Of a DNA stretch of 64,000 bases, positions 3,872 through 28,439 are shown piece after piece; positions within the stretch are counted from its first letter, which is position 1, and every line of letters starts with the position of its first letter. The DNA comes from a virus: the IMG/VR virus record IMGVR_UViG_3300021378_000004. One strand, given 5' to 3'. Made by a program: the position numbers and the translations under genes. The notes under the pieces are model-generated. The model ran no database searches. It was not told the origin of the DNA and worked only from the letters and a program-made list of their open reading frames with translations.

Positions 3872-3893
3872 GCGTCCGTAAGGGCGCTTTTTT
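3872..3893 (+). terminator. rho-independent terminator
   Basis: GCGTCC-GTAA-GGGCGC hairpin followed by T6. Confidence 0.85.
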
Positions 3894-3907: not shown

Positions 3908-3915
3908 TATAAATA
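3908..3915 (+). promoter_or_regulatory. T4-type late promoter TATAAATA
   Basis: Exact gp55 consensus, after the terminator and 5 nt before the ATG at 3921. Confidence 0.8.
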
Positions 3916-3920
3916 GAATC

Positions 3921-5324
3921 ATGTTAAAATTTAAATCATACATGAGATACTTGGAGGAGCGCATGATACTCGAATTTTCGAAGATGCCGCCAGGTGAATG
4001 GGAAAAAATAAATTCTCAGACTAAAGAAACACGTATAGCTATACTAAGAAAGATCGTTAAAGCTGGTGAAGCTATTCCTTCTATTGCAGGCAAAGAAATA
4101 ATAATAAAGAATACACCAGCAAATAGAGAAGCAATTGATCGTTTAGAAAAAGAAAAGAAAACACAAGAGTTTGAAACAAATGCCGGCACAATTAAATCAA
4201 ATGAAATCGGTAAATCAAATGTATTCGGTGGAGCTACCGGAGGTTCTGGTGGCGGAACGCAGCAAACCGCTTTTGCTGAAATTACACAATGTGTTTACTG
4301 CGCGTATATGGTGAACAATACCCGTGCATCCTTTGAGTCTATCCAGCCATCTGATCTTGAAAAAGCCTATAATGCAATTTCAGTGAAAGGTGCTACATTT
4401 GAACAGGTTATGAGTCTAGATGCATCATGGCATTGGTCGGGTTATTGGACAGCACAAGAATTACTAAAGAAAAATTTAATTAATAAAAATATGTCATTCC
4501 ACCGTGATGATAAAGTTATGAATGACATTTATAAAGTAAAAGATGAAGCTCTTAAAAATTCTCAAATGAATAAGTTAAGTAATGACAAATGGAACCCTGG
4601 TGACATATGGGCAACTACTGATAAATCAATAGCCAGCAAACTACCAAAAGGTTCTATTCAGGAACTAAATAAAACACTTGTTAAACTATTTGAATCAAGA
4701 AAATTAGTAGGTATTTCATTAAAAAAGGTTCAATCTAAAAAAGGAATAAAACTTTCTATAGAAAATAAAGATGAAAGTTTAGATGTTCATAAGTTTAAAG
4801 GCGGACGATTGATGGCAACCTTTGCTAAAAAAGGTTCTGAATTCTGGAGAGGTAAAGCTGCTAACATCGAGTTTGACGGAGGTAAAGCTGCAATACGTAA
4901 TAAATCGCAATTTGCTGCTTTAACATTTGAACTAGAATTAAAAACTGCAAGAGGTGGTGGCGGAGGCTACGCACAAATAACCGATTCAATTAAAAGAAGG
5001 ATCGGTAAAACACTACCTTCAAACGCAGATCTTAAAAGAACAGCATTGGAATTAAACAAACAAGGTGAAAAGTCTCGTAATGCATTACCAATCTACAATA
5101 TGGTTAAGAAGATACATCCTACAGTTAGTAAAGAAGAATTCATGGAAGGCTTAACTACAAAGTTAGCAAATGAAGTGCATAGTAAAATTGCTTCAATACA
5201 TGTGTTGTTTCATTTAGTTGATAATATGAGAAACGGCAAAGCAGATTTGGTTGTAACAGACATGGTGAATTATGCTGGTTCTAAACTAGACATATCATCA
5301 ATTTACGCAAAGGTTTACGAATGA
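3921..5324 (+). CDS. putative PD-(D/E)xK-fold nuclease-like protein with capsid-targeting-like N-terminus
   Basis: KWNPGDIW...LVGISLKK; N-terminus MLKFKSYMRYLEE. Confidence 0.5.
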   Translation: MLKFKSYMRYLEERMILEFSKMPPGEWEKINSQTKETRIAILRKIVKAGEAIPSIAGKEIIIKNTPANREAIDRLEKEKKTQEFETNAGTIKSNEIGKSNVFGGATGGSGGGTQQTAFAEITQCVYCAYMVNNTRASFESIQPSDLEKAYNAISVKGATFEQVMSLDASWHWSGYWTAQELLKKNLINKNMSFHRDDKVMNDIYKVKDEALKNSQMNKLSNDKWNPGDIWATTDKSIASKLPKGSIQELNKTLVKLFESRKLVGISLKKVQSKKGIKLSIENKDESLDVHKFKGGRLMATFAKKGSEFWRGKAANIEFDGGKAAIRNKSQFAALTFELELKTARGGGGGYAQITDSIKRRIGKTLPSNADLKRTALELNKQGEKSRNALPIYNMVKKIHPTVSKEEFMEGLTTKLANEVHSKIASIHVLFHLVDNMRNGKADLVVTDMVNYAGSKLDISSIYAKVYE

Positions 5325-6550
5325 TTAAATTTAAAGAATATATAACAGAACAAAAGAATACACACATGACTCACATCGAAGACAAAGTTCTTTACGGTGG
5401 TGTAGATGGAACTAGGCAAGCTATACTTGCTTTACGTTCATTAAGAGACATGTTAGCAGGAGTTAAAGATGGAAACGTTAGTGTTAAGTGGGACGGTGCA
5501 CCCGCTGTTTTCGCTGGTACTGATCCTCGCGACGGTAAATTTTTTGTGGCTAAGAAAGGCATCTTCAACGCCACGCCAAAAGTATATAAAACTAATTCTG
5601 ACGTTGACGACGATACTGGTGGTGATCTTAATGCTAAACTCAAAGCCGCATTAAAGTATTTGCCTGAACTCGGTATCAAAGGTGTAGTACAAGGTGACTT
5701 CTTATTTGATTCAAGTGATGTTAAAACTAAAAAGTTAAAAGGTAAACCTTATGTCACTTTTCATCCTAATACAATTGTATATGCAGTGCCGGCTGGAACT
5801 GAAGCTGCTAAGAAAGTTAAAGCTGCAAAGATTGGAATAGTTTGGCACACTACATACACAGGTAACACATTTGAAACAATGAAAGCTTCTTACGGTGTAG
5901 ATACTACTAAGTTTAAAAACACTAAAAATGTTTGGTCACAAGATGCAATGCTCAGAGACATGACTCAATTTACAATGACTAAAAAAGATACGGAGGAAGT
6001 TAATGCACATCTTAGTAATGCTGGCAGGATTTTTAATAAAATTTCTAGTACTACCTTACGTACTCTCGAAAACAACAATAACATTGCTCAGCTTATTGAA
6101 ACGTTTAATAATTCTTTTGTACGAAAAGGTGAAGTCATTGGTAATACCAAAACCCACGTTGCGAAGTTAATATCACACATAAAATTGAAGTTTCAAAAAG
6201 AGATAGATAAAAGAAAGAGCGAAAAAGGTAAAACTGCTCAACAACAAAAATTAAATGAAATACTTAAATTCTTTTCACCACAAAACAAAATAAGTTTGGA
6301 AATGATGTTTGAATTACAGAAATCTATAGTTCTAGCAAAATTAAAAATTATAAATATACTTAATAAGCTTAATGGCGCACAAACGTTTCTTAAGACTCGT
6401 GATGGGTATAAGGTAACGGGTCAAGAAGGGTATGTGGCCATTGACAAACTTGGTGGTGATGCAGTGAAAATCGTTGATCGTATGGAATTCTCATATGCCA
6501 ACTTTTCACCAGAAATTATAAAAGGATGGGACAAGCCGGGGAGGAACTAA
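5321..6550 (+). CDS. ligase/capping-enzyme-fold nucleotidyltransferase (DUF6267-like)
   Basis: KWDG (motif I), QGDFLF (III), EGYVA (IV), VKIV (V); N-terminus MIKFKEYITE. Confidence 0.65.
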   Translation: MIKFKEYITEQKNTHMTHIEDKVLYGGVDGTRQAILALRSLRDMLAGVKDGNVSVKWDGAPAVFAGTDPRDGKFFVAKKGIFNATPKVYKTNSDVDDDTGGDLNAKLKAALKYLPELGIKGVVQGDFLFDSSDVKTKKLKGKPYVTFHPNTIVYAVPAGTEAAKKVKAAKIGIVWHTTYTGNTFETMKASYGVDTTKFKNTKNVWSQDAMLRDMTQFTMTKKDTEEVNAHLSNAGRIFNKISSTTLRTLENNNNIAQLIETFNNSFVRKGEVIGNTKTHVAKLISHIKLKFQKEIDKRKSEKGKTAQQQKLNEILKFFSPQNKISLEMMFELQKSIVLAKLKIINILNKLNGAQTFLKTRDGYKVTGQEGYVAIDKLGGDAVKIVDRMEFSYANFSPEIIKGWDKPGRN

Positions 6551-7446
6551 TGGCACCATTAGATTTTAAACATATGACGTCTGCGGATTATAAGCCAGGC
6601 GAATCAGATGAAGTGAAATACTACGCTCAGAAACGTAAGAAGCAATATCACGGAAATGAGAGCGTACAATCAGCAGATAGAAAACCAGAAAAATATATAA
6701 AGCCTGACGGTAAAGTCGGCATACGCATGGTTAAGACTGATAAAGAAGTTATTAAAAAAGAAGCAATTGTAGATCCTAATGATTTAAAAGGTAGACCAAA
6801 AAAAGCAGATCCTAATCCTGAATCTCCTTATGGTATTAAACATCCATTACATCCAGCTAATTTGAAAAAGAAAAAAGCTAAAAGCGAAGCTTCTTCTCCT
6901 TCAGTTCTTAAACCAACTAAACCATCTGACATAACTAAACACGCTAGAACACTAGCAAAAAATCCTGGTGATTACGAACGTAATAAGAAAAAGTACATTG
7001 ATAAAGCTCGTGCTAAAGTATTTAGAATGTATCCTAGAGAAAGCTTAAACGGTTTAATGAAAGAAGAATCAATTGACGAAGCTACATGGCCAGATGAAAT
7101 GCCAAAAGAAGAAGTAGATGTTGATGAAGCCTTAAACCTACAACAGAGAATGAAGAAATCTCGATTGATGAAGAGATTAAAAACAAGAATTAAGATTGGT
7201 CGTCAAAGAGCCATGAGAAAGATGGCTAATAAAAAGACTCTTGAAAAAAGATCACGAAGACAAGCACGTAATGAAATTGCAAAGAAATTAACTCGAGGCA
7301 TACCTAAAAGCGAGCTTACATTTGCAAGAAAACAAGAAATTGAAAAGAGACTTGATAAGCCAGCGTTAAAACAAAGGATTAATAGATTAGCTAAACGCAA
7401 GTTTAAAGACGTTCGTAAGAAAGAAGTACAGAGGAAAAAAGGTTAA
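6550..7446 (+). CDS. basic modular hypothetical protein, probable internal head protein
   Basis: Start at 6550 after GGAGG; K/R-rich C-terminus; shares a module with 8629-9579. Confidence 0.6.
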   Translation: MAPLDFKHMTSADYKPGESDEVKYYAQKRKKQYHGNESVQSADRKPEKYIKPDGKVGIRMVKTDKEVIKKEAIVDPNDLKGRPKKADPNPESPYGIKHPLHPANLKKKKAKSEASSPSVLKPTKPSDITKHARTLAKNPGDYERNKKKYIDKARAKVFRMYPRESLNGLMKEESIDEATWPDEMPKEEVDVDEALNLQQRMKKSRLMKRLKTRIKIGRQRAMRKMANKKTLEKRSRRQARNEIAKKLTRGIPKSELTFARKQEIEKRLDKPALKQRINRLAKRKFKDVRKKEVQRKKG

Positions 7447-8636
7447 TGATAAATTCGTTTAGATCATTTCTTATTGAAGAAGACAAAACTGTATACTTTA
7501 CTTTTGGACGTATGAATCCACCTACATCGGGTCATGAAAAGTTAATGAATGAGTTATCTAAAAAATCAGGTAGTAACCCATACAGAGTGTATCTATCTCA
7601 ATCTACAGATAACAAGAAAAACCCTTTGAACTATAATTATAAAATTAAGACGGTCCGTAAATTTTTTCCAAAGCACGCCAGAAGTGTAATGCTTGATAAG
7701 AAAGTTAAGAATGTATTTGATGCAGCAACTAAATTATATTCAGAAGGATATAAGAATATCAATATGGTTGTTGGCTCAGACAGGATTAATGAATTTAAAA
7801 AGTTATTAGAAAAATACAATGGTGTAAAAGGAAGACATGGACTTTATAAGTTTAACAAAATAAACGTAATTTCAGCTGGAGACCGTGATCCAGATGCAGA
7901 TGACGTATCAGGTATGTCAGCATCAAAGATGAGAAATTTGGCGAGTAAAGGAGACTTTACACAATTCTCACAAGGGTTACCTAGAAGTGTTTCGAATAAT
8001 GAAGCTAAGAAAGTATATAATGAAGTACGTCGTGGAATGGGATTAAAAGAACAAAAAGAATATAAAACTACATTACACTTTACTCCAGTCTCTGAAGAAA
8101 GAGAGGCATATGTTAAAGGAACTCTGTTTAATATTGGTGACAGTGTTGCTTTCATGGGCAGTGACGAACTCGCTACTGTTACCAATCTTGGAAGTAATTA
8201 TGTCATTGTAGAATCAAATGGTAGGTCTTATAGAAAATGGTTAACTGATATTGAATTAGTAGAAAAGAAACAAGAAGCACCGAAGAAAGTAAAGCAAGAT
8301 CCTGATGTAAAGAAAGCACCCGGTACTCAACCGGCTCCATACTTCAAAGGTCTTTCGAAATCTACTAAGACTAAAAGACTTTCACATTTCAAAAAACACG
8401 CTAAAATGTCGGATGATAATCCGGCAGCATACAAGAAAGCACCTGGTGATGCAACAGCTAAAACTAAACCAAGTAAACATACTTTAAAGTATAGAAGAAT
8501 GTATGGTGAAGATGCTGTAGACCTCGCTAAGAAAAAAATTGAAAGAGAAAAAATAGTTGATAAGATTAAACATGCTAGAATGTTAGATCGAGCTAAAGTT
8601 AGAAAAATTAAAAACAGGAGTAAAGCTAATGCTTAA
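7446..8636 (+). CDS. cytidyltransferase-like (HIGH-superfamily) nucleotidyltransferase
   Basis: FGRMNPPTSGH, VVGSDR, SAGDRDPD, MSASKMR. Confidence 0.85.
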   Translation: MINSFRSFLIEEDKTVYFTFGRMNPPTSGHEKLMNELSKKSGSNPYRVYLSQSTDNKKNPLNYNYKIKTVRKFFPKHARSVMLDKKVKNVFDAATKLYSEGYKNINMVVGSDRINEFKKLLEKYNGVKGRHGLYKFNKINVISAGDRDPDADDVSGMSASKMRNLASKGDFTQFSQGLPRSVSNNEAKKVYNEVRRGMGLKEQKEYKTTLHFTPVSEEREAYVKGTLFNIGDSVAFMGSDELATVTNLGSNYVIVESNGRSYRKWLTDIELVEKKQEAPKKVKQDPDVKKAPGTQPAPYFKGLSKSTKTKRLSHFKKHAKMSDDNPAAYKKAPGDATAKTKPSKHTLKYRRMYGEDAVDLAKKKIEREKIVDKIKHARMLDRAKVRKIKNRSKANA

Positions 8637-9579
8637 ATTTTCAACCCATCAAGAGTTATTCGAAAACGAAGGACTCAAGAAAAAATCGGCAAAGTCTGGC
8701 ATATCTTATGGTACTTTAAAGAAAGTATATAATAGAGGAATGGCAGCTTGGAAAACCGGTCACAGGCCAGGAACCACACCTCAACAGTGGGCAATGGCAA
8801 GAGTCAATTCTTATATTGGAAAAGGTAAAGGTACTTACTACGGTGCCGATTCAGACCTCAGCGGTAAAGGTAAAAAAGAATCTGTAGATGAAGCGCACGA
8901 CGCTAAACATGTTAAACAAGCAATTGGTATAGCATCTGATCCTCGATATAAAAAAGGAAATATGACTGGTGCTGTAAAAGCTATGAATAAAATCTCCAAA
9001 GATATTGATAAACATCCTCAAGTTGCAGCGGTTTTGAGAAAACAAAACGAATCTAAAGTAAATGAAATATCAAAGAATCTTGCAAAGAATTATATTGGCA
9101 AAGCCTCAAGAGATGTATTTCAAAAAGGCAGAGATGATTCTACACAAGATGCTATAGGCAAATTAGGTGGTAAGCATAAAGATCAAGATTACAATAAAGG
9201 TCCTGAAAGAAAAGCTTCAATGAGAGTACGTGGTATTGATAGAGCTACAAATAGGCTTATGAAAAAAGAAGCAGTTCATTCTGCAGATAAAAAACCAGAA
9301 AAATATAGAAAGCCTGATGGCAAAATTGGAATTCGAATGGTTCCAATGGATAAAGAAATTGTTAAAAAAGAAGCAATGTCTGATTCAGAAAAGAAAGCAC
9401 ATGACGCAGCTATCGCAGCATTTAAAGCTAAAGGTGGTAAAGTTAAAAAGCTTAAACCAGGTTATGCACAAGGTTGGACTGGTAAAGATGATCTTGGTAC
9501 TGGAATGAAAGGCATGATGTCAAAAGATGACACTAAAAGTTTTGGTACTAATAAAAAAGTTGGGAGCATGAAACGATGA
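8629..9579 (+). CDS. modular basic protein with DUF5824-like N-terminal domain
   Basis: LKKVYNRGMAAWKTGHRPG...QWAMARVNS. Confidence 0.6.
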   Translation: MLKFSTHQELFENEGLKKKSAKSGISYGTLKKVYNRGMAAWKTGHRPGTTPQQWAMARVNSYIGKGKGTYYGADSDLSGKGKKESVDEAHDAKHVKQAIGIASDPRYKKGNMTGAVKAMNKISKDIDKHPQVAAVLRKQNESKVNEISKNLAKNYIGKASRDVFQKGRDDSTQDAIGKLGGKHKDQDYNKGPERKASMRVRGIDRATNRLMKKEAVHSADKKPEKYRKPDGKIGIRMVPMDKEIVKKEAMSDSEKKAHDAAIAAFKAKGGKVKKLKPGYAQGWTGKDDLGTGMKGMMSKDDTKSFGTNKKVGSMKR

Positions 9580-9797
9580 CTTTGGCAAAAGCAATTAATG
9601 AAGTTAAAAAAAGCTTAATGGAAGAAAATATAGAAGAAGATCGTAAAGCTGGTAAATATAAAAAAGGTGAAATGATTGTTATGGGTCAATGGCCTAATCC
9701 TGATCAATGGGCTAAAGAATATATTATGCCAAATGTAGATAAAAAGGGTGTTCGTATATACTCAGATGGACCATCTTTTAAAATAGAAAAACTTTAG
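9576..9797 (+). CDS. hypothetical protein
   Basis: ATGA-coupled ORF. Confidence 0.6.
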   Translation: MTLAKAINEVKKSLMEENIEEDRKAGKYKKGEMIVMGQWPNPDQWAKEYIMPNVDKKGVRIYSDGPSFKIEKL

Positions 9798-9806
9798 GAG
9801 ATATTG

Positions 9807-10304
9807 ATGAAAACCTTTTTTCAATTTCGTAAAGATCTAAACGAAGCAAAATTTGCTGGTAGTACCATTAAGATGTTTGGTCAAAGTAATCGTAAGAAAC
9901 CTGTAAAGAAAGAAGCTTCTTGTCAAAAACCTATTAAGAAAGAAGATACAAGTTTTAAAGTTTCTATTGATGGATTACCAGATATGTATATGAACGATAA
10001 AACACCAGGTGCGTTATTGCAAAAGCTTCGTAAGATTGTTAAACAACCATCAATGATAAAAGATGTTGATAGAACTACTACAAACAAAGTTAAGAAAGCA
10101 TATAGAGATAAAGCACAAGGTAGAGAAGTTAAAGAATACAAATATGATTATGGTACACCGGAATCTGTAAAGCTTATGAAGAAAGTAACTCCTGGCGAAA
10201 AAGAAGAAGGTTATGTATCTATGGCTCAACAACGTGCCGTATGGGCTAATCGTAAAGACGGTGGCAAAGGACATCCTGATAATAAGAAAAAAAGGAAAAA
10301 GTAA
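9807..10304 (+). CDS. modular basic protein, probable internal head protein
   Basis: N-terminus MKTFFQFRKDLNE resembles the T4 capsid targeting sequence. Confidence 0.6.
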   Translation: MKTFFQFRKDLNEAKFAGSTIKMFGQSNRKKPVKKEASCQKPIKKEDTSFKVSIDGLPDMYMNDKTPGALLQKLRKIVKQPSMIKDVDRTTTNKVKKAYRDKAQGREVKEYKYDYGTPESVKLMKKVTPGEKEEGYVSMAQQRAVWANRKDGGKGHPDNKKKRKK

Positions 10305-10600
10305 TGAGCTTAGATAGATTTAAAACATTTATAGAAGCTCGAGGAGCAGATTCTAAAGGTCATTTTAGATCTACTAAATCTGGTGCTGGTATGACTGCAA
10401 AAGGTGTGGCAGCTCATCGTAGAAAGAATCCTGGTAGTAAATTACAAACTGCTGTTACTGGAAAAGTAAAAGCTGGAAGTAAAGCTGCTGGTAGACGTAA
10501 ATCATTTTGTGCTCGTATGAGTGGTATGAAAGGCCCGATGAAAGATGAAAAGGGTAGACCTACTCGTAAAGCTATGTCTCTAAAAAGGTGGAAATGTTAA
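10304..10600 (+). CDS. DUF6321-like small basic protein
   Basis: GMTAKGVAA..NPGSKL..RRKSFCARM..W-C motif. Confidence 0.7.
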   Translation: MSLDRFKTFIEARGADSKGHFRSTKSGAGMTAKGVAAHRRKNPGSKLQTAVTGKVKAGSKAAGRRKSFCARMSGMKGPMKDEKGRPTRKAMSLKRWKC

Positions 10601-10602
10601 CA

Positions 10603-10764
10603 ATGAAAAACTGGATAACAAAAAGAATTAAAGAACGAACAAGTATGGACGGAGCAGTTTGTATTGCTCTTGGTCTTATGATTTTATTTTTAGCGCCTTT
10701 GGCTAAGATTGCAGCAGGTCTTGCAATTGCTTATGGCGTATGGACTATTTGGAAAGGTGAATAA
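10603..10764 (+). CDS. small 2-TM membrane protein (holin-like candidate)
   Basis: Hand-translated MKNWITKRIKERTSMDGAVCIALGL... Confidence 0.55.
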   Translation: MKNWITKRIKERTSMDGAVCIALGLMILFLAPLAKIAAGLAIAYGVWTIWKGE

Positions 10765-10905
10765 ATGGCAAAAGCATTTAAAACTGTTTTAGAACACGAA
10801 GTTATTAAGCACGGAACTTCAATAGGTCGCAGACCAAACACTTCTACTATGAACAAACATAAAAGAAGAAGTCTAAAAAAATACAGAGGTCAGGGAAAAA
10901 ACTAG
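10765..10905 (+). CDS. small basic protein (46 aa)
   Basis: Hand-translated, ends KKYRGQGKN, a pattern seen in T4-like small proteins. Confidence 0.6.
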   Translation: MAKAFKTVLEHEVIKHGTSIGRRPNTSTMNKHKRRSLKKYRGQGKN

Positions 10906-11186
10906 TGGCAATAGAATCAAACGAAACTAGACTCGATAGAATCGAAAGTAAGATAGATAAGCTTGCAGATGCTATGATATCTTTAGCAAGAGCAGAGGAG
11001 AAGATAATAGCATTACAAGACGATCACGATAATATGAGAGACAGAATGAATAAACTCTCTGTCAAATTAGATGACATACAGAAAGCTGTTGACGATAACG
11101 CAAGAACTGTAAGTCTTATAAATAAAGTGGTATACGCTGCAATGGTTGCAGCAGTAGGAGCCTATGTGGCCCACATGTGGATGTAA
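10905..11186 (+). CDS. coiled-coil protein with C-terminal TM helix
   Basis: Heptad pattern, hydrophobic C-terminus. Confidence 0.65.
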   Translation: MAIESNETRLDRIESKIDKLADAMISLARAEEKIIALQDDHDNMRDRMNKLSVKLDDIQKAVDDNARTVSLINKVVYAAMVAAVGAYVAHMWM

Positions 11187-11197
11187 AGGAGAAACCA

Positions 11198-13252
11198 ATG
11201 TTCAGTAATAATCCATTCAGAATACATAGGGCCATAGATCAGGTCCTAAACGAAAGTAAATTTTTAATTCCGGAAGAAATACCTGCAAATGAAAGAACAG
11301 CATTTCATGGTGCAGCTGCAGGCGCTGCTAAAGATGGTAAGACATCTTTTAGTTTTGCTGGTAAAAAATATCCAGTAACTATGAAAAAAGATTTAGCAAA
11401 TAAAATTGCAGATCAAAAAGAAGCAACACACACTACTGACTTTTTTGTAGGACATAAACACGCTGCAAAAGCTGGTATGGGAGTTAAAGTACATAGTAAA
11501 GGTGCAGATGGAGATAACGTAACTATATCTCATTCAGATCCTAAAAAATTACAAAAGTATGTTGACAATCATTTAGGTGGTGGCAAAATAAAAGAAGATG
11601 CAGGAATACCACACAAATACACTGTAGATTTGTATCATAAGAATCATGGTTCGCATGACTCGTTTATGAAAAAAGCAAAAGCTGCTGGAATTAATGCAAA
11701 ATATTCAGGTGTTAACGACGATGGCAAAGTAAAAGTATCTTTGAATCATCATGATAATTCAGATGGCGGAACTATACATAAATTTCTTAAAAAGCACTAT
11801 GATAAAGATATGACTCATAGTAATATGCAAACTATGAAAACAGGATCTTCATCAGTACAGAAAGAAGTTACAGCACGATCATCTGGATATGGTATAAGAA
11901 ATAAAGTTTCAGATATGCCAGGTGTAGATTACAGTTGGAGAGATAAGTATAAAGGTGGTGTTGCATCTAAAGACGCTCTTAAAAAAGTTAGAGCAAAATC
12001 AGACGCAAAACGAGCTGAGTATAGAAAAAAAATGGGTATGAAAGAAGACTTTATGAATGAAGAATATAGTAAAACTAATAAAGCGTCTATAACTATTAAA
12101 CATGGTTATGACGAAGGTGATGGTCCAGATAACAAGAAATTTGCAAAGTATATTAATAAAAATACAGGCGCTACAGTTAAGCATCATAAAGATGGTTCAA
12201 CAATGTCATTTCATGGAAGCGATCATCAAATACATAAAGCCTTACAACATCATCACTCTGATGACAAAAAAGGATTAGGTGATTTGAATTATCATAAAAA
12301 AGGTATGACTCATTCTGACGACCACGTTGATGGTCAGCATTCTTATAAAGCTGAAGGTACAACTTTTAGAGAAAAGTTAATGTCTATATATGAGAACGAT
12401 AAAGCTTCTCATTACAAAAGCGCAACAAAGCCAGAAACTATGGACGATCAACTTAAAGGCGCTGGTGCTAAACAGATGAAAGCTGATCTTACAGGCGGTG
12501 ATACTAAACCAGCCGATATGGAAAAGCAATCACACGCAGATGCAGCAAAAGCAGGTAGAGCTGGACCAGGTACAAAAGCTAGAACTAATGATAATAAAAA
12601 AGGCGATAAGAAAGCTATGGCATCAGCCACACCAGTAAACGATCCTACAGCAAAAATTGTTAGGATGGAAGCTAAAGAGCTTCCGCATCAAGAAGCAATA
12701 GATGATCATAGATCTCACTCGCGCGAACATAAAGACAACCGCTTCGATAATCCTAAAACTTCAGGTAAGCATCATATGGCTGCTTATCATGCCCACCAGG
12801 ATGCTGCAGATCATCTAGAAAATGGTCGCATAAAAGAAGCTAAAGCTTCTGCAGAGAAAGCTCTTGATCATGCTAAAAAAGCAAAAGCTGCTGGTGGAGA
12901 AGATCATGTAGGTGAAACTGCTAATATTTTAAAAAAGCATCATTCAGCAAAAACAGAAGCTTATGGAATATCAGGAAACAAAATATCAAGTAGTTTACTA
13001 GCTGCTATTGCAATGGTTGGAGAAGACTATACTCACGAAATTGATGTAATGGATGATCATGTAAAGAAAATTGTATCTAGTGCTAAGAAAGCTGGTATTA
13101 AAGCAAAGATTCATACTATGAACGGACCGGGTGGTGGTAATCCAGTTGTTCATATTGGACACAAAGACGACGATCATGTGCATAAATTCTTGAAAAAGCA
13201 TTATGATCCAGATTTTAAAAAATCTGATTTGAAACATCATAAAATAGGGTAA
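11198..13252 (+). CDS. His/Lys-rich modular polyprotein, probable internal head protein
   Basis: Start after AAGGAG; repeated ~60-70 aa domains ending HKFLKKHY-like. Confidence 0.65.
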   Translation: MFSNNPFRIHRAIDQVLNESKFLIPEEIPANERTAFHGAAAGAAKDGKTSFSFAGKKYPVTMKKDLANKIADQKEATHTTDFFVGHKHAAKAGMGVKVHSKGADGDNVTISHSDPKKLQKYVDNHLGGGKIKEDAGIPHKYTVDLYHKNHGSHDSFMKKAKAAGINAKYSGVNDDGKVKVSLNHHDNSDGGTIHKFLKKHYDKDMTHSNMQTMKTGSSSVQKEVTARSSGYGIRNKVSDMPGVDYSWRDKYKGGVASKDALKKVRAKSDAKRAEYRKKMGMKEDFMNEEYSKTNKASITIKHGYDEGDGPDNKKFAKYINKNTGATVKHHKDGSTMSFHGSDHQIHKALQHHHSDDKKGLGDLNYHKKGMTHSDDHVDGQHSYKAEGTTFREKLMSIYENDKASHYKSATKPETMDDQLKGAGAKQMKADLTGGDTKPADMEKQSHADAAKAGRAGPGTKARTNDNKKGDKKAMASATPVNDPTAKIVRMEAKELPHQEAIDDHRSHSREHKDNRFDNPKTSGKHHMAAYHAHQDAADHLENGRIKEAKASAEKALDHAKKAKAAGGEDHVGETANILKKHHSAKTEAYGISGNKISSSLLAAIAMVGEDYTHEIDVMDDHVKKIVSSAKKAGIKAKIHTMNGPGGGNPVVHIGHKDDDHVHKFLKKHYDPDFKKSDLKHHKIG

Positions 13253-13256
13253 TAAT

Positions 13257-13619
13257 ATGCAAGCACCAAATTATCAAAAAGATGCTATTCCAACTCCAAT
13301 AAATGATCCTACAGCAAAGATCGTTAAAACAGAAGCTTATGGAATATCAGGAAACAAAATATCTAGTAATCTATTAGATGCTATATCAATGGTTGAAGAT
13401 ATGAATAAAGTTCATACTGTTGATATTGATCACATGACAGGTACTGCTGGTTCACATGAAAAAAAACATGGTATTACTTTAAAGAAAAGTAAAAACTATG
13501 ATAATACAAGAGGAATGATGGCAACTGATGCAACTGGTACTAAAGCTAACTTACAAAAATATTTAAAGAAACATTATGATGGGGATCATAAAGAAATGCA
13601 CCCTGAAATTTATAAGTAA
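13257..13619 (+). CDS. chimeric paralog of the neighbouring genes
   Basis: Built from DNA segments identical to both flanking genes. Confidence 0.65.
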   Translation: MQAPNYQKDAIPTPINDPTAKIVKTEAYGISGNKISSNLLDAISMVEDMNKVHTVDIDHMTGTAGSHEKKHGITLKKSKNYDNTRGMMATDATGTKANLQKYLKKHYDGDHKEMHPEIYK

Positions 13620-13629
13620 AGGAAATATA

Positions 13630-13959
13630 ATGCAAGCACCAAATTATCAAAAAGATGCTATTCCAACTCCTCAGGGTTGGAGGCATCCTAGAACTGGAGA
13701 GCTCTTAGTTTCTATGAAAATATCCGAAGCTGCGATTAATGAGTACTTAGGCGTTAGTCCTGAGCCACAAATGTTAAAAGAAGCTCCTACTAATTTTCAA
13801 GAAGCTAAAGTCGAACTTATGGTTGAAGACAATTTACCTAGTGAATACGAAAGTATGACAAAAGCTGAATTGGAATCAATAGGAAGAGATCACGGCGTTG
13901 AACTAGACAGAAGAAAATCAAAAGCAGCATTAATACAAGAATTAAAAGAGATACTTTAA
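13630..13959 (+). CDS. hypothetical protein with C-terminal Rho-N/SAP-like helical motif
   Basis: MTKAELESIGRDHGVELDRRKSKAALI; start at 13630 after AAGGA. Confidence 0.65.
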   Translation: MQAPNYQKDAIPTPQGWRHPRTGELLVSMKISEAAINEYLGVSPEPQMLKEAPTNFQEAKVELMVEDNLPSEYESMTKAELESIGRDHGVELDRRKSKAALIQELKEIL

Positions 13960-27915: not shown

Positions 27916-27923
27916 TATTTATA
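27916..27923 (-). promoter_or_regulatory. late promoter TATAAATA
   Basis: Exact consensus just upstream of gp2. Confidence 0.75.
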
Positions 27924-28431: not shown

Positions 28432-28439
28432 TATAAATA
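28432..28439 (+). promoter_or_regulatory. late promoter TATAAATA
   Basis: Exact consensus upstream of the baseplate operon. Confidence 0.8.

Follow-up and report, generated by a model that had tools for sequence, protein, structure and literature searches.

Gene content and transcription signals of the operon

In the 64,000-nucleotide stretch of viral DNA analysed here (the window), about 14 genes occupy one strand from 3921 to 13619. They lie behind an intrinsic terminator (3872–3893, plus strand), in which GCGTCC-GTAA-GGGCGC (3872–3887) is followed by TTTTTT and which ends the upstream unit, and a late-type TATAAATA promoter (3908–3915, plus strand) placed 5 bases 5′ of the gene A ATG. Both elements, as anticipated in the original prediction, were located at this site. 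The gene A transcript probably has a short leader or none. Internal copies of TATAAATA stand on the same strand within gene B (6349–6356), 200 bases upstream of gene C, and upstream of gene L (11117–11124). The octamer also precedes baseplate and tail genes of the window, at 28432, 37091, 40350, 54580, 55862 and 61555 and, on the minus strand, at 27923 and 54567. Late expression of the operon is predicted from the copies at 3908, 6349 and 11117. No head genes were found within the 64-kb window, and the phage's own protease and scaffold are not seen for that reason.

All genes of the operon are on the plus strand. Gene A (3921–5324; 467 residues; phrog_1462) opens with the leader MLKFKSYMRYLEE (3921–3959); no known fold was recognised in its body, and among 21 homologues the leader is present in some and missing in others. 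A metatranscriptome contig joins 3933 to 5330, linking the leader of A to that of B, and matches relatives that have no gene A. Gene B (5321–6550; 409 residues) is a DUF6267 protein with the leader MIKFKEYITE (5321–5350). Gene C (6550–7446) encodes about 298 residues from the ATG at 6550, the likely true start of a reading frame that opens at 6526. Its leader is the variant MAPLDFKHMTSAD, in which Asp replaces the Glu where cleavage is expected; in T4, such an Asp stops processing yet permits targeting. Relatives of gene C begin MLDFKDFIVAD..., MPLRFKQFISE and MLSFKQFVSE. Its C-terminal part is very basic, and it contains internal I-D-E/A and V-D-E/A sites (here and below, a slash marks the expected cleavage point).

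Gene D (7446–8636; 396 residues) is a PPTxGH nucleotidyltransferase with a basic tail and the leader MINSFRSFLIEE (7446–7481), and gene E (8629–9579; 316 residues) combines DUF5824 with a basic region behind the leader MLKFSTHQELFE (8629–8664). Gene F (9576–9797; 73 residues) begins MTLAKAINE..., resembles the leader weakly and has only two homologues among related loci; its status as cargo is doubtful. The basic gene G (9807–10304; 165 residues) carries MKTFFQFRKDLNE (9807–9845), or (M)MKTFFQFRKDLNE from an alternative start at 9804. Gene H (10304–10600; 98 residues; DUF6321) carries MSLDRFKTFIE (10304–10336), and gene J (10765–10905; 46 residues, basic) the leader-like MAKAFKTVLE (10765–10794). 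Gene I (10588–10764; 58 residues) is small and hydrophobic and has no canonical leader. Gene K (10905–11186; 93 residues) is conserved in cyanophages and has a coiled coil and a C-terminal hydrophobic segment; the leader occurs in 0 of 30 members of its family. Both I and K are probably small membrane-like proteins rather than cargo.

Gene L (11198–13252) encodes 684 residues from a probable ATG at 11198, within a reading frame that opens with GTG at 11177; its leader is MFSNNPFRIHRAIDQVLNE (11198–11254), and the protein is His/Lys-rich and repetitive. Gene M (13257–13619; 120 residues) fuses the opening 14 codons of the gene that follows to L's C-terminal module; this chimera arose through tandem duplication of some 373 bp (repeat families D1, D2 and D3; spacing 373–376). 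The products of genes C, G, J and L, like the tails of D and E, are low-complexity sequences of extremely basic composition.

The N-terminal leader and its likeness to the T4 capsid targeting sequence

Nine genes of the operon begin with a leader of 10–19 residues of the form M-x-x-F-x-x-[F/Y]-[I/L]-x-E, with consensus positions F4, [F/Y]7, [I/L/V]8 and E10. All N-termini quoted in the original prediction were found, at 3921, 5321, 7446, 8629, 9804/9807, 10304 and 11177 (...RAIDQVLNE), and two more were added, those of genes J (10765) and C (6550). The 10-residue T4 spacing is exact only in B and D; the leaders of A, E, G, H and L are longer or shifted, with extra residues before the Glu. The cargo is somewhat smaller than the predicted 10 kb or so: the nine leader-bearing genes cover about 8.7 kb, and I and K without the tag, the doubtful F and the chimeric M fall outside it.

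The leader is concentrated in this operon, far beyond chance expectation. Within the first 24 residues, F..[FYH].{0,5}[LIVF].E is matched by 5 of 14 genes of the region, with F at position 4–5, compared with 2 of 73 genes elsewhere in the window (F at 11 or 16); among internal 24-residue windows, 2 of 693 match. Across the window and 80 related viral contigs, 217 of 1,435 reading frames carry the leader, 215 of them on the operon strand. In this set it tags 73 of 81 DUF6267 proteins and 86 of 155 members of the cytidylyltransferase (CTase)/DUF5824 cluster, and none of the members of four flanking families (0/36, 0/30, 0/26 and 0/24). The leader marks only families of this operon.

It also behaves as a modular tag that is present or absent within families. 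In a set of 122 complete DUF6267 representatives sharing less than 50% identity, the canonical leader is found in 60 and 22 begin at the catalytic domain; the other 40 start differently, in some cases with a recognisable variant of the leader. When encoded as a separate gene, DUF5824 bears a leader of its own; fused behind a CTase, it has none. In relatives, the leader is also found on HD_4 proteins and on Zeta-toxin/AAA_33 kinase-like proteins. In the AF2 model of gene B, the leader is disordered (pLDDT <50) ahead of a confident fold.

The conserved leader residues use varied codons (TTT/TTC for F, ATA/ATT/ATC for I, ACA/ACT/ACC/ACG for T and GAA/GAG for E), whereas the x positions change in amino acid; selection on the leader acts at the protein level across hundreds of relatives. 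In 166 distinct leaders, and within the limits set by the search pattern, P3 is I/V/L in 92%, P4 is F/L/Y in 87% and P7 is F in 65%; P1 is Glu by definition of that pattern. P1′ varies widely (Q, E, K, A and others), compared with Ala in the T4 internal proteins.

The predicted likeness to the T4 capsid targeting sequence was borne out. T4 IPII and IPIII begin MKTYQEFIAE/A, and IPI begins MKTFKEF...ITE/A. In the IPIII tag, residues 4 and 7 serve targeting and residues 8 and 10 processing (PMC9026906); these four mutation-mapped positions are the four conserved in the marine leaders. When 39 T4 gene starts are ranked with a position matrix built from 82 marine leaders, the window excluded, ipIII, ipII and ipI take the top three places in that order.

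The corresponding head machinery is encoded by relatives. A gp21-type prohead protease (PF03420, Peptidase_S77) is present in four of four operon-carrying relatives (E 1e-38 to 1e-41), adjoining gp22- and gp23-like genes. In one relative, gp21 starts MKLIAE/F and gp23 contains ...GMLSE/A; in one, a small reading frame starting MKTFRDVRTKKE adjoins gp21 in the head module.

Probable cargo enzymes and cyanophage virion proteomes

Gene B has K56-x-D58-G59, E369-G370 and K383 invariant across 103 sequences (34–60% identity), and these residues correspond to motifs I (KxDG, with the predicted catalytic Lys), IV (EG) and V (K) of covalent nucleotidyltransferases. Its AF2 model (pLDDT 94) found no match with Foldseek. 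With VIA-align, at Z scores middling for that tool, it aligned with REL1 (Z 8.1; 194 residues, rmsd 4.4), T4 Rnl2 (7.8; 177), Trl1 (7.7; 200) and T4 Rnl1 (7.2; 173); all matches over more than 170 residues were RNA or DNA ligases (aligned range 173–206). Similarity to ATP-dependent RNA ligases was not detectable at the sequence level. Gene B shares motifs I, IV and V and a putative adenylyltransferase-like core with T4 Rnl1 and Rnl2, T. brucei REL1 and fungal Trl1, but, unlike RNA ligases, has a helical insert of about 130 residues between the N-terminal motifs and motifs IV/V. We assign it as an RNA-ligase-like covalent nucleotidyltransferase of putative activity. In metagenomes, close homologues of this DUF6267 protein number more than 8,000.

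Gene D has G21-R-M-N-P-P-T27-x-G29-H30 and S158, K161 and R163 invariant in 49 sequences, matching the (H/T)xGH and C-terminal S-x-x-x-x-R type motifs of HxGH nucleotidyltransferases. Against Pfam PF01467 it scores 17.2 bits (E 0.006), below the gathering cut-off of 21. Since it matches PHROG 'cytidyltransferase' families at 2e-78 and 3e-67, and its fused relatives reach 30 bits for PF01467, membership of the HxGH superfamily (PF01467, cytidylyltransferase/NMNAT-like) is likely; its specific activity, be it NMNAT, CTase or other, is putative. Other phages have DUF5824 attached to the CTase C-terminus, and counterparts of B, D and E are found fused in one chain, which suggests that the three probably act together.

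Virion proteomes of cyanophages contain homologues of gene D. In the portions of the reports available (PMC9602691, PMC9146016, PMC10665884), NMNAT-like or cytidylyltransferase proteins are recorded in virions of S-SCSM1, S-CBWM1, S-SZBM1 and S-CREM2, and those of S-SZBM1, S-CREM2 and S-SCSM1 bear the leader. These CTases are 33–39% identical to gene D and occupy the same operon position, and the leader is present in all three inspected. The S-SZBM1 virion CTase starts MRFRQFIIE/A. S-CREM2 gp154 starts MKNFSSFLTE/A, and its gene likewise lies behind a terminator and TATAAATA; gp155 and gp156 are in the virion along with it. In S-SCSM1, ORFs 89–93 are in the virion proteome (PMC9602691): the NMNAT-like ORF91 starts MKSFLQFLKE/A and is 39% identical to D, and ORF90, the homologue of gene A, is a virion protein without a canonical leader. 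The DUF6267 protein of S-SZBM1 has no leader, and the accessible part of the report does not name it as a virion protein. The S-SCSM1 authors note that virion mass spectrometry may catch abundant co-purifying late proteins (PMC9602691). As far as the accessible portions go, the cyanophage virion papers (PMC9602691, PMC9146016, PMC10665884) report detection and consider carry-over, and mention neither a targeting leader nor processing. In the literature searched, no paper linked a T4-type tag to marine phage cargo.

Proposed packaging, alternatives and related systems

The operon probably encodes head-packaged internal proteins of an uncultured marine T4-like myovirus. It would be transcribed late in infection from TATAAATA promoters. 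The tag of 10–19 residues, M-x-x-F4-x-x-[F/Y]7-[I/L]8-x-E10, would dock the cargo to the scaffolding core during prohead assembly, and a gp21-type prohead protease would cut after the Glu, releasing the mature protein within the shell. The mature cargo would stay with the packaged DNA and exit with it at the next infection. This cargo would comprise the nucleotidyltransferases B and D, the DUF5824 protein E, A (467 residues), the DUF6321 protein H and the basic C, G, J and L, which may also neutralise DNA charge. That folded enzymes of 45–75 kDa could pass the tail is an assumption, made on the model of T4 Alt and of engineered fusions. Packaging of the leader-bearing proteins by a T4-type capsid targeting sequence, the core of the original prediction, is well supported, though indirectly, by the leader match, conservation, modularity, late promoters, the gp21 of relatives and three proteomes; docking to the scaffold, cleavage, delivery and a cellular role for the enzymes we infer by analogy with known systems. 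The parallel with IPI* and GmrSD is retained as context only.

It is unlikely that the leader loads the prohead with proteins that act as scaffold or core accessories or as charge fillers, the enzymes being inactive or used in head maturation only, with no role in the next cell. The extremely basic, low-complexity C, G, J and L and tails of D and E do resemble T4 IPII and IPIII, and the MKTFRDVRTKKE reading frame beside a relative's gp21 suggests that core-like proteins also carry the tag. Against this, the catalytic motifs of B (103 sequences) and the PPTxGH and S-x-x-K-x-R motifs of D are invariant, which argues that both are active enzymes with cellular substrates such as NTPs and RNA, and T4 internal proteins and Alt are ejected (PMC9026906).

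Readings in which the leader is not a packaging signal fare poorly. The shared N-terminus might be another kind of tag (a modification or degradation site, an oligomerisation helix or a translation-initiation feature), with virion detection explained by carry-over. TATAAATA lies so close to the gene A ATG that 5′ coding sequence could affect translation, and the authors of PMC9602691 allow for contamination. We consider this very unlikely: codon variation at conserved residues makes RNA-level selection improbable, most tagged genes are operon-internal and translationally coupled rather than leaderless, the operon has no linked modifying enzyme, the marine profile singles out experimentally proven T4 targeting-sequence proteins, and three independent proteomes agree on one family. 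That the likeness is functionless, with recombination between neighbouring genes recopying the same 30–40 bases, is extremely improbable and already disfavoured. The contig joining leaders A and B and the tandem duplication at the operon's 3′ end speak for it; yet the nine leaders differ in DNA and at x positions and have only 4–5 residues common to all, the pattern holds in families below 40% identity and in thousands of metagenomic proteins, and F4, Y7, I8 and E10 are under purifying selection while their codons change freely at synonymous sites, which shows function.

If packaging proceeds as in T4, the proteins carried into the cell would be predictable from genome sequence alone, and the conserved, sometimes fused pair of ligase-like enzyme and nucleotidyltransferase would be singled out as a function of the first minute of infection. 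Packaging would also account for the recurrent 'cytidylyltransferase/NMNAT' in cyanophage virion proteomes, and the tag could be put to use for packing foreign proteins into the heads of marine phages. T4-like myoviruses rank among the sea's most abundant viruses. On a wider reading, possible but more doubtful than not, T4-like phages of the sea (cyanomyoviruses, pelagimyophages, OM43 phages and many uncultured lineages) would bring a ready-made kit of enzymes into the cell along with their DNA, acting before phage gene expression. The kit might hold an RNA-ligase-like enzyme, an NMNAT-like nucleotidyltransferase and DUF5824 as one pathway, with HD-domain proteins and Zeta-toxin-like kinases as exchangeable extras, and might serve, for example, cleaved-tRNA repair or NAD+ restoration against abortive-infection defences. 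The 10-residue tag would then make the injected proteome readable, and its coding sequence could act as a recombination joint for cargo swaps.

Targeting sequences of this kind are already known from T4; here a T4-type tag stands on marine phage proteins that include two enzymes. As in T4 IPI, IPII and IPIII (Mullaney and Black 1996; reviewed in PMC9026906 and PMC3012670), the marine tag is a predicted propeptide of 10–19 residues at the extreme N-terminus, with aromatics at 4 and 7, Ile/Leu at 8 and Glu at 10 on otherwise unrelated proteins. In both systems the genes lie behind TATAAATA late promoters, several cargo proteins are small and basic, and a gp21-type protease is encoded, here by relatives. 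In contrast, the mature marine proteins do not resemble the T4 internal proteins and include enzymes of about 400 residues in one operon of about 9.7 kb, the spacing from aromatic pair to Glu varies by 0–9 extra residues, P1′ is not Ala, and cleavage and ejection are proposed from the T4 example. The original contrast with the small internal proteins of T4 leaves aside Alt, an enzyme of 76 kDa that T4 also packages.

Alt, an ADP-ribosyltransferase, is a large head-carried enzyme that is processed by gp21, injected and active at once on host targets (PMC9026906), and is thus a precedent for enzymes packaged in a T4-type head. It is processed at both termini and not listed among proteins with the IP-type 10-residue tag (PMC9026906), and the enzymes of this operon are nucleotidyltransferases with different folds. 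In the giant phages phiKZ, 201phi2-1 and SPN3US (PMC5694885), a gp21-like protease processes many head proteins, cutting N-terminal propeptides after Glu at a short motif, and the DNA is accompanied at ejection by a large protein payload, as proposed for this operon. Unlike here, their propeptides are mostly longer than 100 residues with the motif A/S-x-E, and their cargo consists of an inner body and a virion RNA polymerase (PMC5694885).

Leaders on the genes of a late operon

The window derives from an uncultured marine T4-like myovirus, with a G+C content of ~33%, a gp32-like ssDNA-binding protein, a ribonucleotide reductase and a full T4-type baseplate gene set. The original prediction placed a terminator and then a promoter ahead of the operon, and both are present: a hairpin at 3872-3887 with a T run precedes TATAAATA at 3908 and the ATG of gene A at 3921. 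The leader N-termini that it quoted were likewise all found in the window sequence. At other places in the window the TATAAATA octamer also precedes baseplate, tail and fibre genes, and two further copies lie within the operon, at 6349 and 11117. No convincing plus-strand terminator was found between 3921 and 14200, stop and start codons overlap at many gene junctions, and the region is read, from its sequence, as a single late transcription unit of ~14 genes. Gene C most likely starts at ATG 6550 (MAPLDFKH...), matching relatives, and gene L at ATG 11198 (MFSNNPFRIHRAIDQVLNE), shortly 3′ of the internal promoter.

At three late promoters (3908-3923 on the plus strand; 27923-27908 and 54567-54552 on the minus strand) the spacing is TATAAATA-N5-ATG, while other TATAAATA sites lie 20-50 bases ahead of the ATG. 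T4 late transcription starts ~6 bases past the octamer; with the same start point, these three late mRNAs would begin at or beside the start codon and thus be leaderless.

The recurrence of the N-terminal leader in operon genes exceeds chance. A permissive pattern (F..[FYH], then at most five residues, then [LIVF].E, within the first 24 residues) matches 5 of 14 operon-region genes, always with Phe at position 4 or 5, against 2 of 73 other window genes (Phe at 11 or 16) and 2 of 693 internal 24-residue windows. Among 1,435 clustered ORFs from the window and 80 related viral contigs, 217 carry the leader, 215 of them on the operon strand. It is present in 73/81 DUF6267 ORFs (the family of protein B) and in 86/155 ORFs of the cluster containing the cytidylyltransferase (CTase) and DUF5824, the families of proteins D and E. 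Its frequency is high too in several families with no member in the window, and flanking families lack it (0/36, 0/30, 0/26, 0/24 and 0/24). Counting back from the predicted cleavage site, the 166 distinct leaders have Ile, Val or Leu at P3 (92%), Phe, Leu or Tyr at P4 (87%) and Phe at P7 (65%), frequencies that hold within what the search pattern allows, P1 Glu being built into it; residues between the conserved positions vary freely. The constraint is on the protein, and an RNA-level signal is unlikely, because codons differ at the conserved residues: the DUF6267 leader, in 60 versions distinct at the DNA level, uses TTT/TTC for Phe, ATA/ATT/ATC for Ile, ACA/ACT/ACC/ACG for Thr and GAA/GAG for Glu.

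The leader is modular. Among 1.8 billion cluster representatives, 2,580 are relatives of protein B, and the consensus N-terminus of the family is M-x-x-F-x-x-x-L-x-E. Of the 122 complete, unfused proteins among the best 150 of these relatives, 60 have the canonical leader pattern, 22 start right at the first conserved domain motif (KN-x-H-x-x-H-x-ED) and 40 have other N-termini, recognisable leader variants among them. In family A the leader is likewise present in some members and absent in others, and DUF5824, which follows the CTase as a fusion in some phages, is in the window a separate gene, E, with its own leader. AlphaFold models B with a mean pLDDT of 94 for the fold and with pLDDT <50 for residues 1-10 ahead of it. 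The same leader occurs in relatives on an HD_4 domain protein (L058 302-1072), on two Zeta-toxin/AAA_33 P-loop kinase-like proteins (L060 2429-3298 and L072 2677-3351) and on several unannotated families. The HD_4 and Zeta-toxin/AAA_33 genes lie at the 5′ side of the operon, which appears to be an exchangeable slot for extra cargo.

The ESM Atlas copy of protein A starts at residue 15 (leader region 3921-3965 of the window), so the gene caller took the second Met. Automatic annotation can remove the leader, which may be one reason for its having been overlooked.

Marine metatranscriptome contigs from four runs, assembled from related strains and covering pieces of the operon, with DNA carry-over possible, join 3933 to 5330 and skip 1,396 bases. 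The join connects the opening codons of gene A straight to gene B, and the break falls within two similar leader-coding sequences; gene A is therefore missing from some relatives, and leader DNA may serve as a recombination joint for the gain and loss of cargo genes. At the 3′ end, gene M arose through a ~373-bp tandem duplication (12950-13297 and 13326-13670, 88-89% identical). It is a chimera of the next gene's first 14 codons (MQAPNYQKDAIPTP, also at 13630), a piece of L (12629-12673) and the C-terminal module of L (...KFLKKHYD...), an arrangement that suggests a recent shuffling of modules.

Among named phages the closest is C48C1 (Kyanoviridae), with 66% identity in protein B. Homologues at greater distances are found in some 400 cyanomyoviruses, Pelagibacter phage HTVC008M, Methylophilales phages Melnitz and Stenotrophomonas phage DLP_6. 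Compared by Megablast with 50,697 phage records, the 11-kb region had no DNA-level match. In marine metagenomes there are >8,000 protein B homologues, the best 120 all at least 86% identical, and the lineage is, on this count, very common there.

Identity of the probable cargo proteins

Protein B resembles an RNA ligase, an assignment of moderate confidence. K56-W-D58-G59, E369-G370 and K383 are invariant in 103 sequences and match covalent-nucleotidyltransferase motifs I, IV and V. Foldseek searches of the PDB gave no match for B or A at E <= 0.001, and searches of PDB chains with the A, B and D sequences and the B and D profiles gave nothing significant. In exhaustive VIA-align comparisons of B, all matches longer than 170 residues are ligases: T. 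brucei REL1 (Z 8.1, 194 residues, rmsd 4.4), T4 Rnl2 (Z 7.8, 177 residues) and Trl1 (Z 7.7, 200 residues) score highest, with Naegleria RNA ligase (Z 7.6), T4 Rnl1 (Z 7.2) and an archaeal DNA ligase (Z 6.6) also matched. The remaining rows match the helical insert only.

Protein D, a likely HxGH nucleotidyltransferase, has invariant PPTxGH and S-x-x-K-x-R motifs and matches PHROG cytidyltransferase families at 1e-78, its Pfam score being under threshold. The metagenomic protein P0126 contains DUF6267, the HxGH nucleotidyltransferase and DUF5824 in one chain, in that order, and has no leader ahead of the DUF6267 domain with which it starts; this fusion in one polypeptide points to a functional link among the three. 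B and D are fused in reverse order in P0211, and fusions among these metagenomic proteins (P0126, P0211 and P0262) occur in both orders.

Protein A has a confident predicted fold (pLDDT 87.6) that matches no solved fold, the best hit of a wide VIA-align search reaching Z 3.6. Atlas leads to HpaII/HaeIII restriction enzymes are weak (0.84, below the reliable level); given these and the lack of a fold match, A is assigned neither as a nuclease nor as a kinase. C, G, J, L and the tails of D and E are strongly basic, L being repetitive and His/Lys-rich, and the untagged I and K look like small membrane proteins. NCBIfam and PADLOC gave no meaningful matches for eight operon proteins.

Prohead protease and published virion proteomes

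No head module lies within the 64-kb window. A Peptidase_S77 (gp21) homologue was found in 4/4 operon-bearing relatives searched, namely three near-complete viral contigs and C48C1 (E 1e-38 to 1e-41). The head cluster of one relative (contig L088) encodes an acidic core protein, a 65-residue ORF, gp21, a gp22-like scaffold and gp23. Its gp21 starts MKLIAE-F and its gp23 has ...GMLSE-APTNS near residue 55, putative sites of the T4 type, hydrophobic-x-Glu. The 65-residue ORF (L088 4148-4345) starts MKTFRDVRTKKE and lies directly 5′ of the gp21 gene; T4 encodes small prohead core proteins directly upstream of gp21. The tag seems to be common to core components and cargo.

Homologues of the operon proteins have been reported in virions. 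CsCl-purified S-SZBM1 virions contain the cytidylyltransferase and the adjoining ORF139 (PMC9146016), and the CTase starts MRFRQFIIE-A in the genome. The DUF6267 protein of the same phage, S-SZBM1_141 (L003 11478-12671), has no leader, its N-terminus being that of the domain (MAKNTHLEHLED), and the virion proteins listed in the available passages of that paper do not include it. Within those passages, the leader-less DUF6267 protein and the detected, leader-bearing CTase form a small natural control (n = 1). The virion proteins of S-CREM2 include gp154 (CTase), gp155 and gp156 (PMC10665884); gp154 starts MKNFSSFLTE-A and, like the operon in the window, is preceded by a hairpin terminator and TATAAATA. 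The S-SCSM1 annotation lists each of ORFs 89-93 as a virion protein; ORF91 ("NMNAT"), with the N-terminus MKSFLQFLKE-A, shares 39% identity with D, and ORF90 is distantly homologous to A (E 1e-7).

The S-SCSM1 authors noted that NMNAT-like proteins are detected again and again in cyanophage virions, including S-CBWM1, and allowed for their being either carried or contaminants (PMC9602691). The available passages of the S-SZBM1, S-CREM2 and S-SCSM1 papers make no mention of a targeting leader, and a full-text search of non-subscription journals found no literature tying capsid targeting or the CTS to cyanophage or Synechococcus cargo. Targeted loading would explain this recurrent oddity of cyanophage virion proteomes, the detection of NMNAT-like/CTase proteins.

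Comparison with the T4 capsid targeting sequence

In the best-supported reading, cargo would be made late in infection from the observed late promoters. The tag would dock it to the scaffolding core while the prohead assembles, and a gp21-type protease, such as that encoded by the relatives, would free it by cutting after Glu. The cargo would then stay in the DNA-filled head until ejected. Of the proposal that the operon's products are loaded into the head, matured and injected, packaging is supported by the T4-matching tag and by the published presence of homologues in virions; docking, cleavage, ejection and a role in the cell we infer. An early role for the RNA-ligase-like and NMNAT-like pair, for example in tRNA repair or NAD+ rescue, is speculation.

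In T4, IPII and IPIII both have the N-terminus MKTYQEFIAE with Ala next, and IPI starts MKTFKEF, with ITE-Ala at residue 19 (NC_000866). The ten N-terminal residues of IPIII are enough for encapsidation (Mullaney and Black 1996, summarised in PMC9026906); residues 4 and 7 weigh most in targeting and 8 and 10 in processing, and Asp at position 10 blocks processing and keeps targeting (PMC9026906). The conserved positions of the marine leaders are these same four. The gene B leader, M-I-K-F4-K-E-Y7-I8-T-E10, fits the T4 CTS residue for residue, and that of gene D (MINSFRSFLIEE) fits with its register off by one residue. Gene C and many of its relatives have Asp at the equivalent place (MLDFKDFIVAD...); by the T4 rule, the N-terminus of C would be targeted yet uncut. 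A log-odds matrix built from 82 marine ten-residue leaders, the window left out, ranks ipIII, ipII and ipI first, second and third of 39 T4 gene starts (one T4 segment, starts from NC_000866). Being fixed at ten positions, it gives low scores to the longer leaders of A, E, G, H and L.

The principle is already known, since the CTS has been proposed as a possible general route by which T4-like phages load varied proteins into the capsid (PMC9026906). The leader-bearing operon proteins are probably T4-type capsid-targeted internal proteins, of a distant and ecologically dominant branch with enzymes as cargo.
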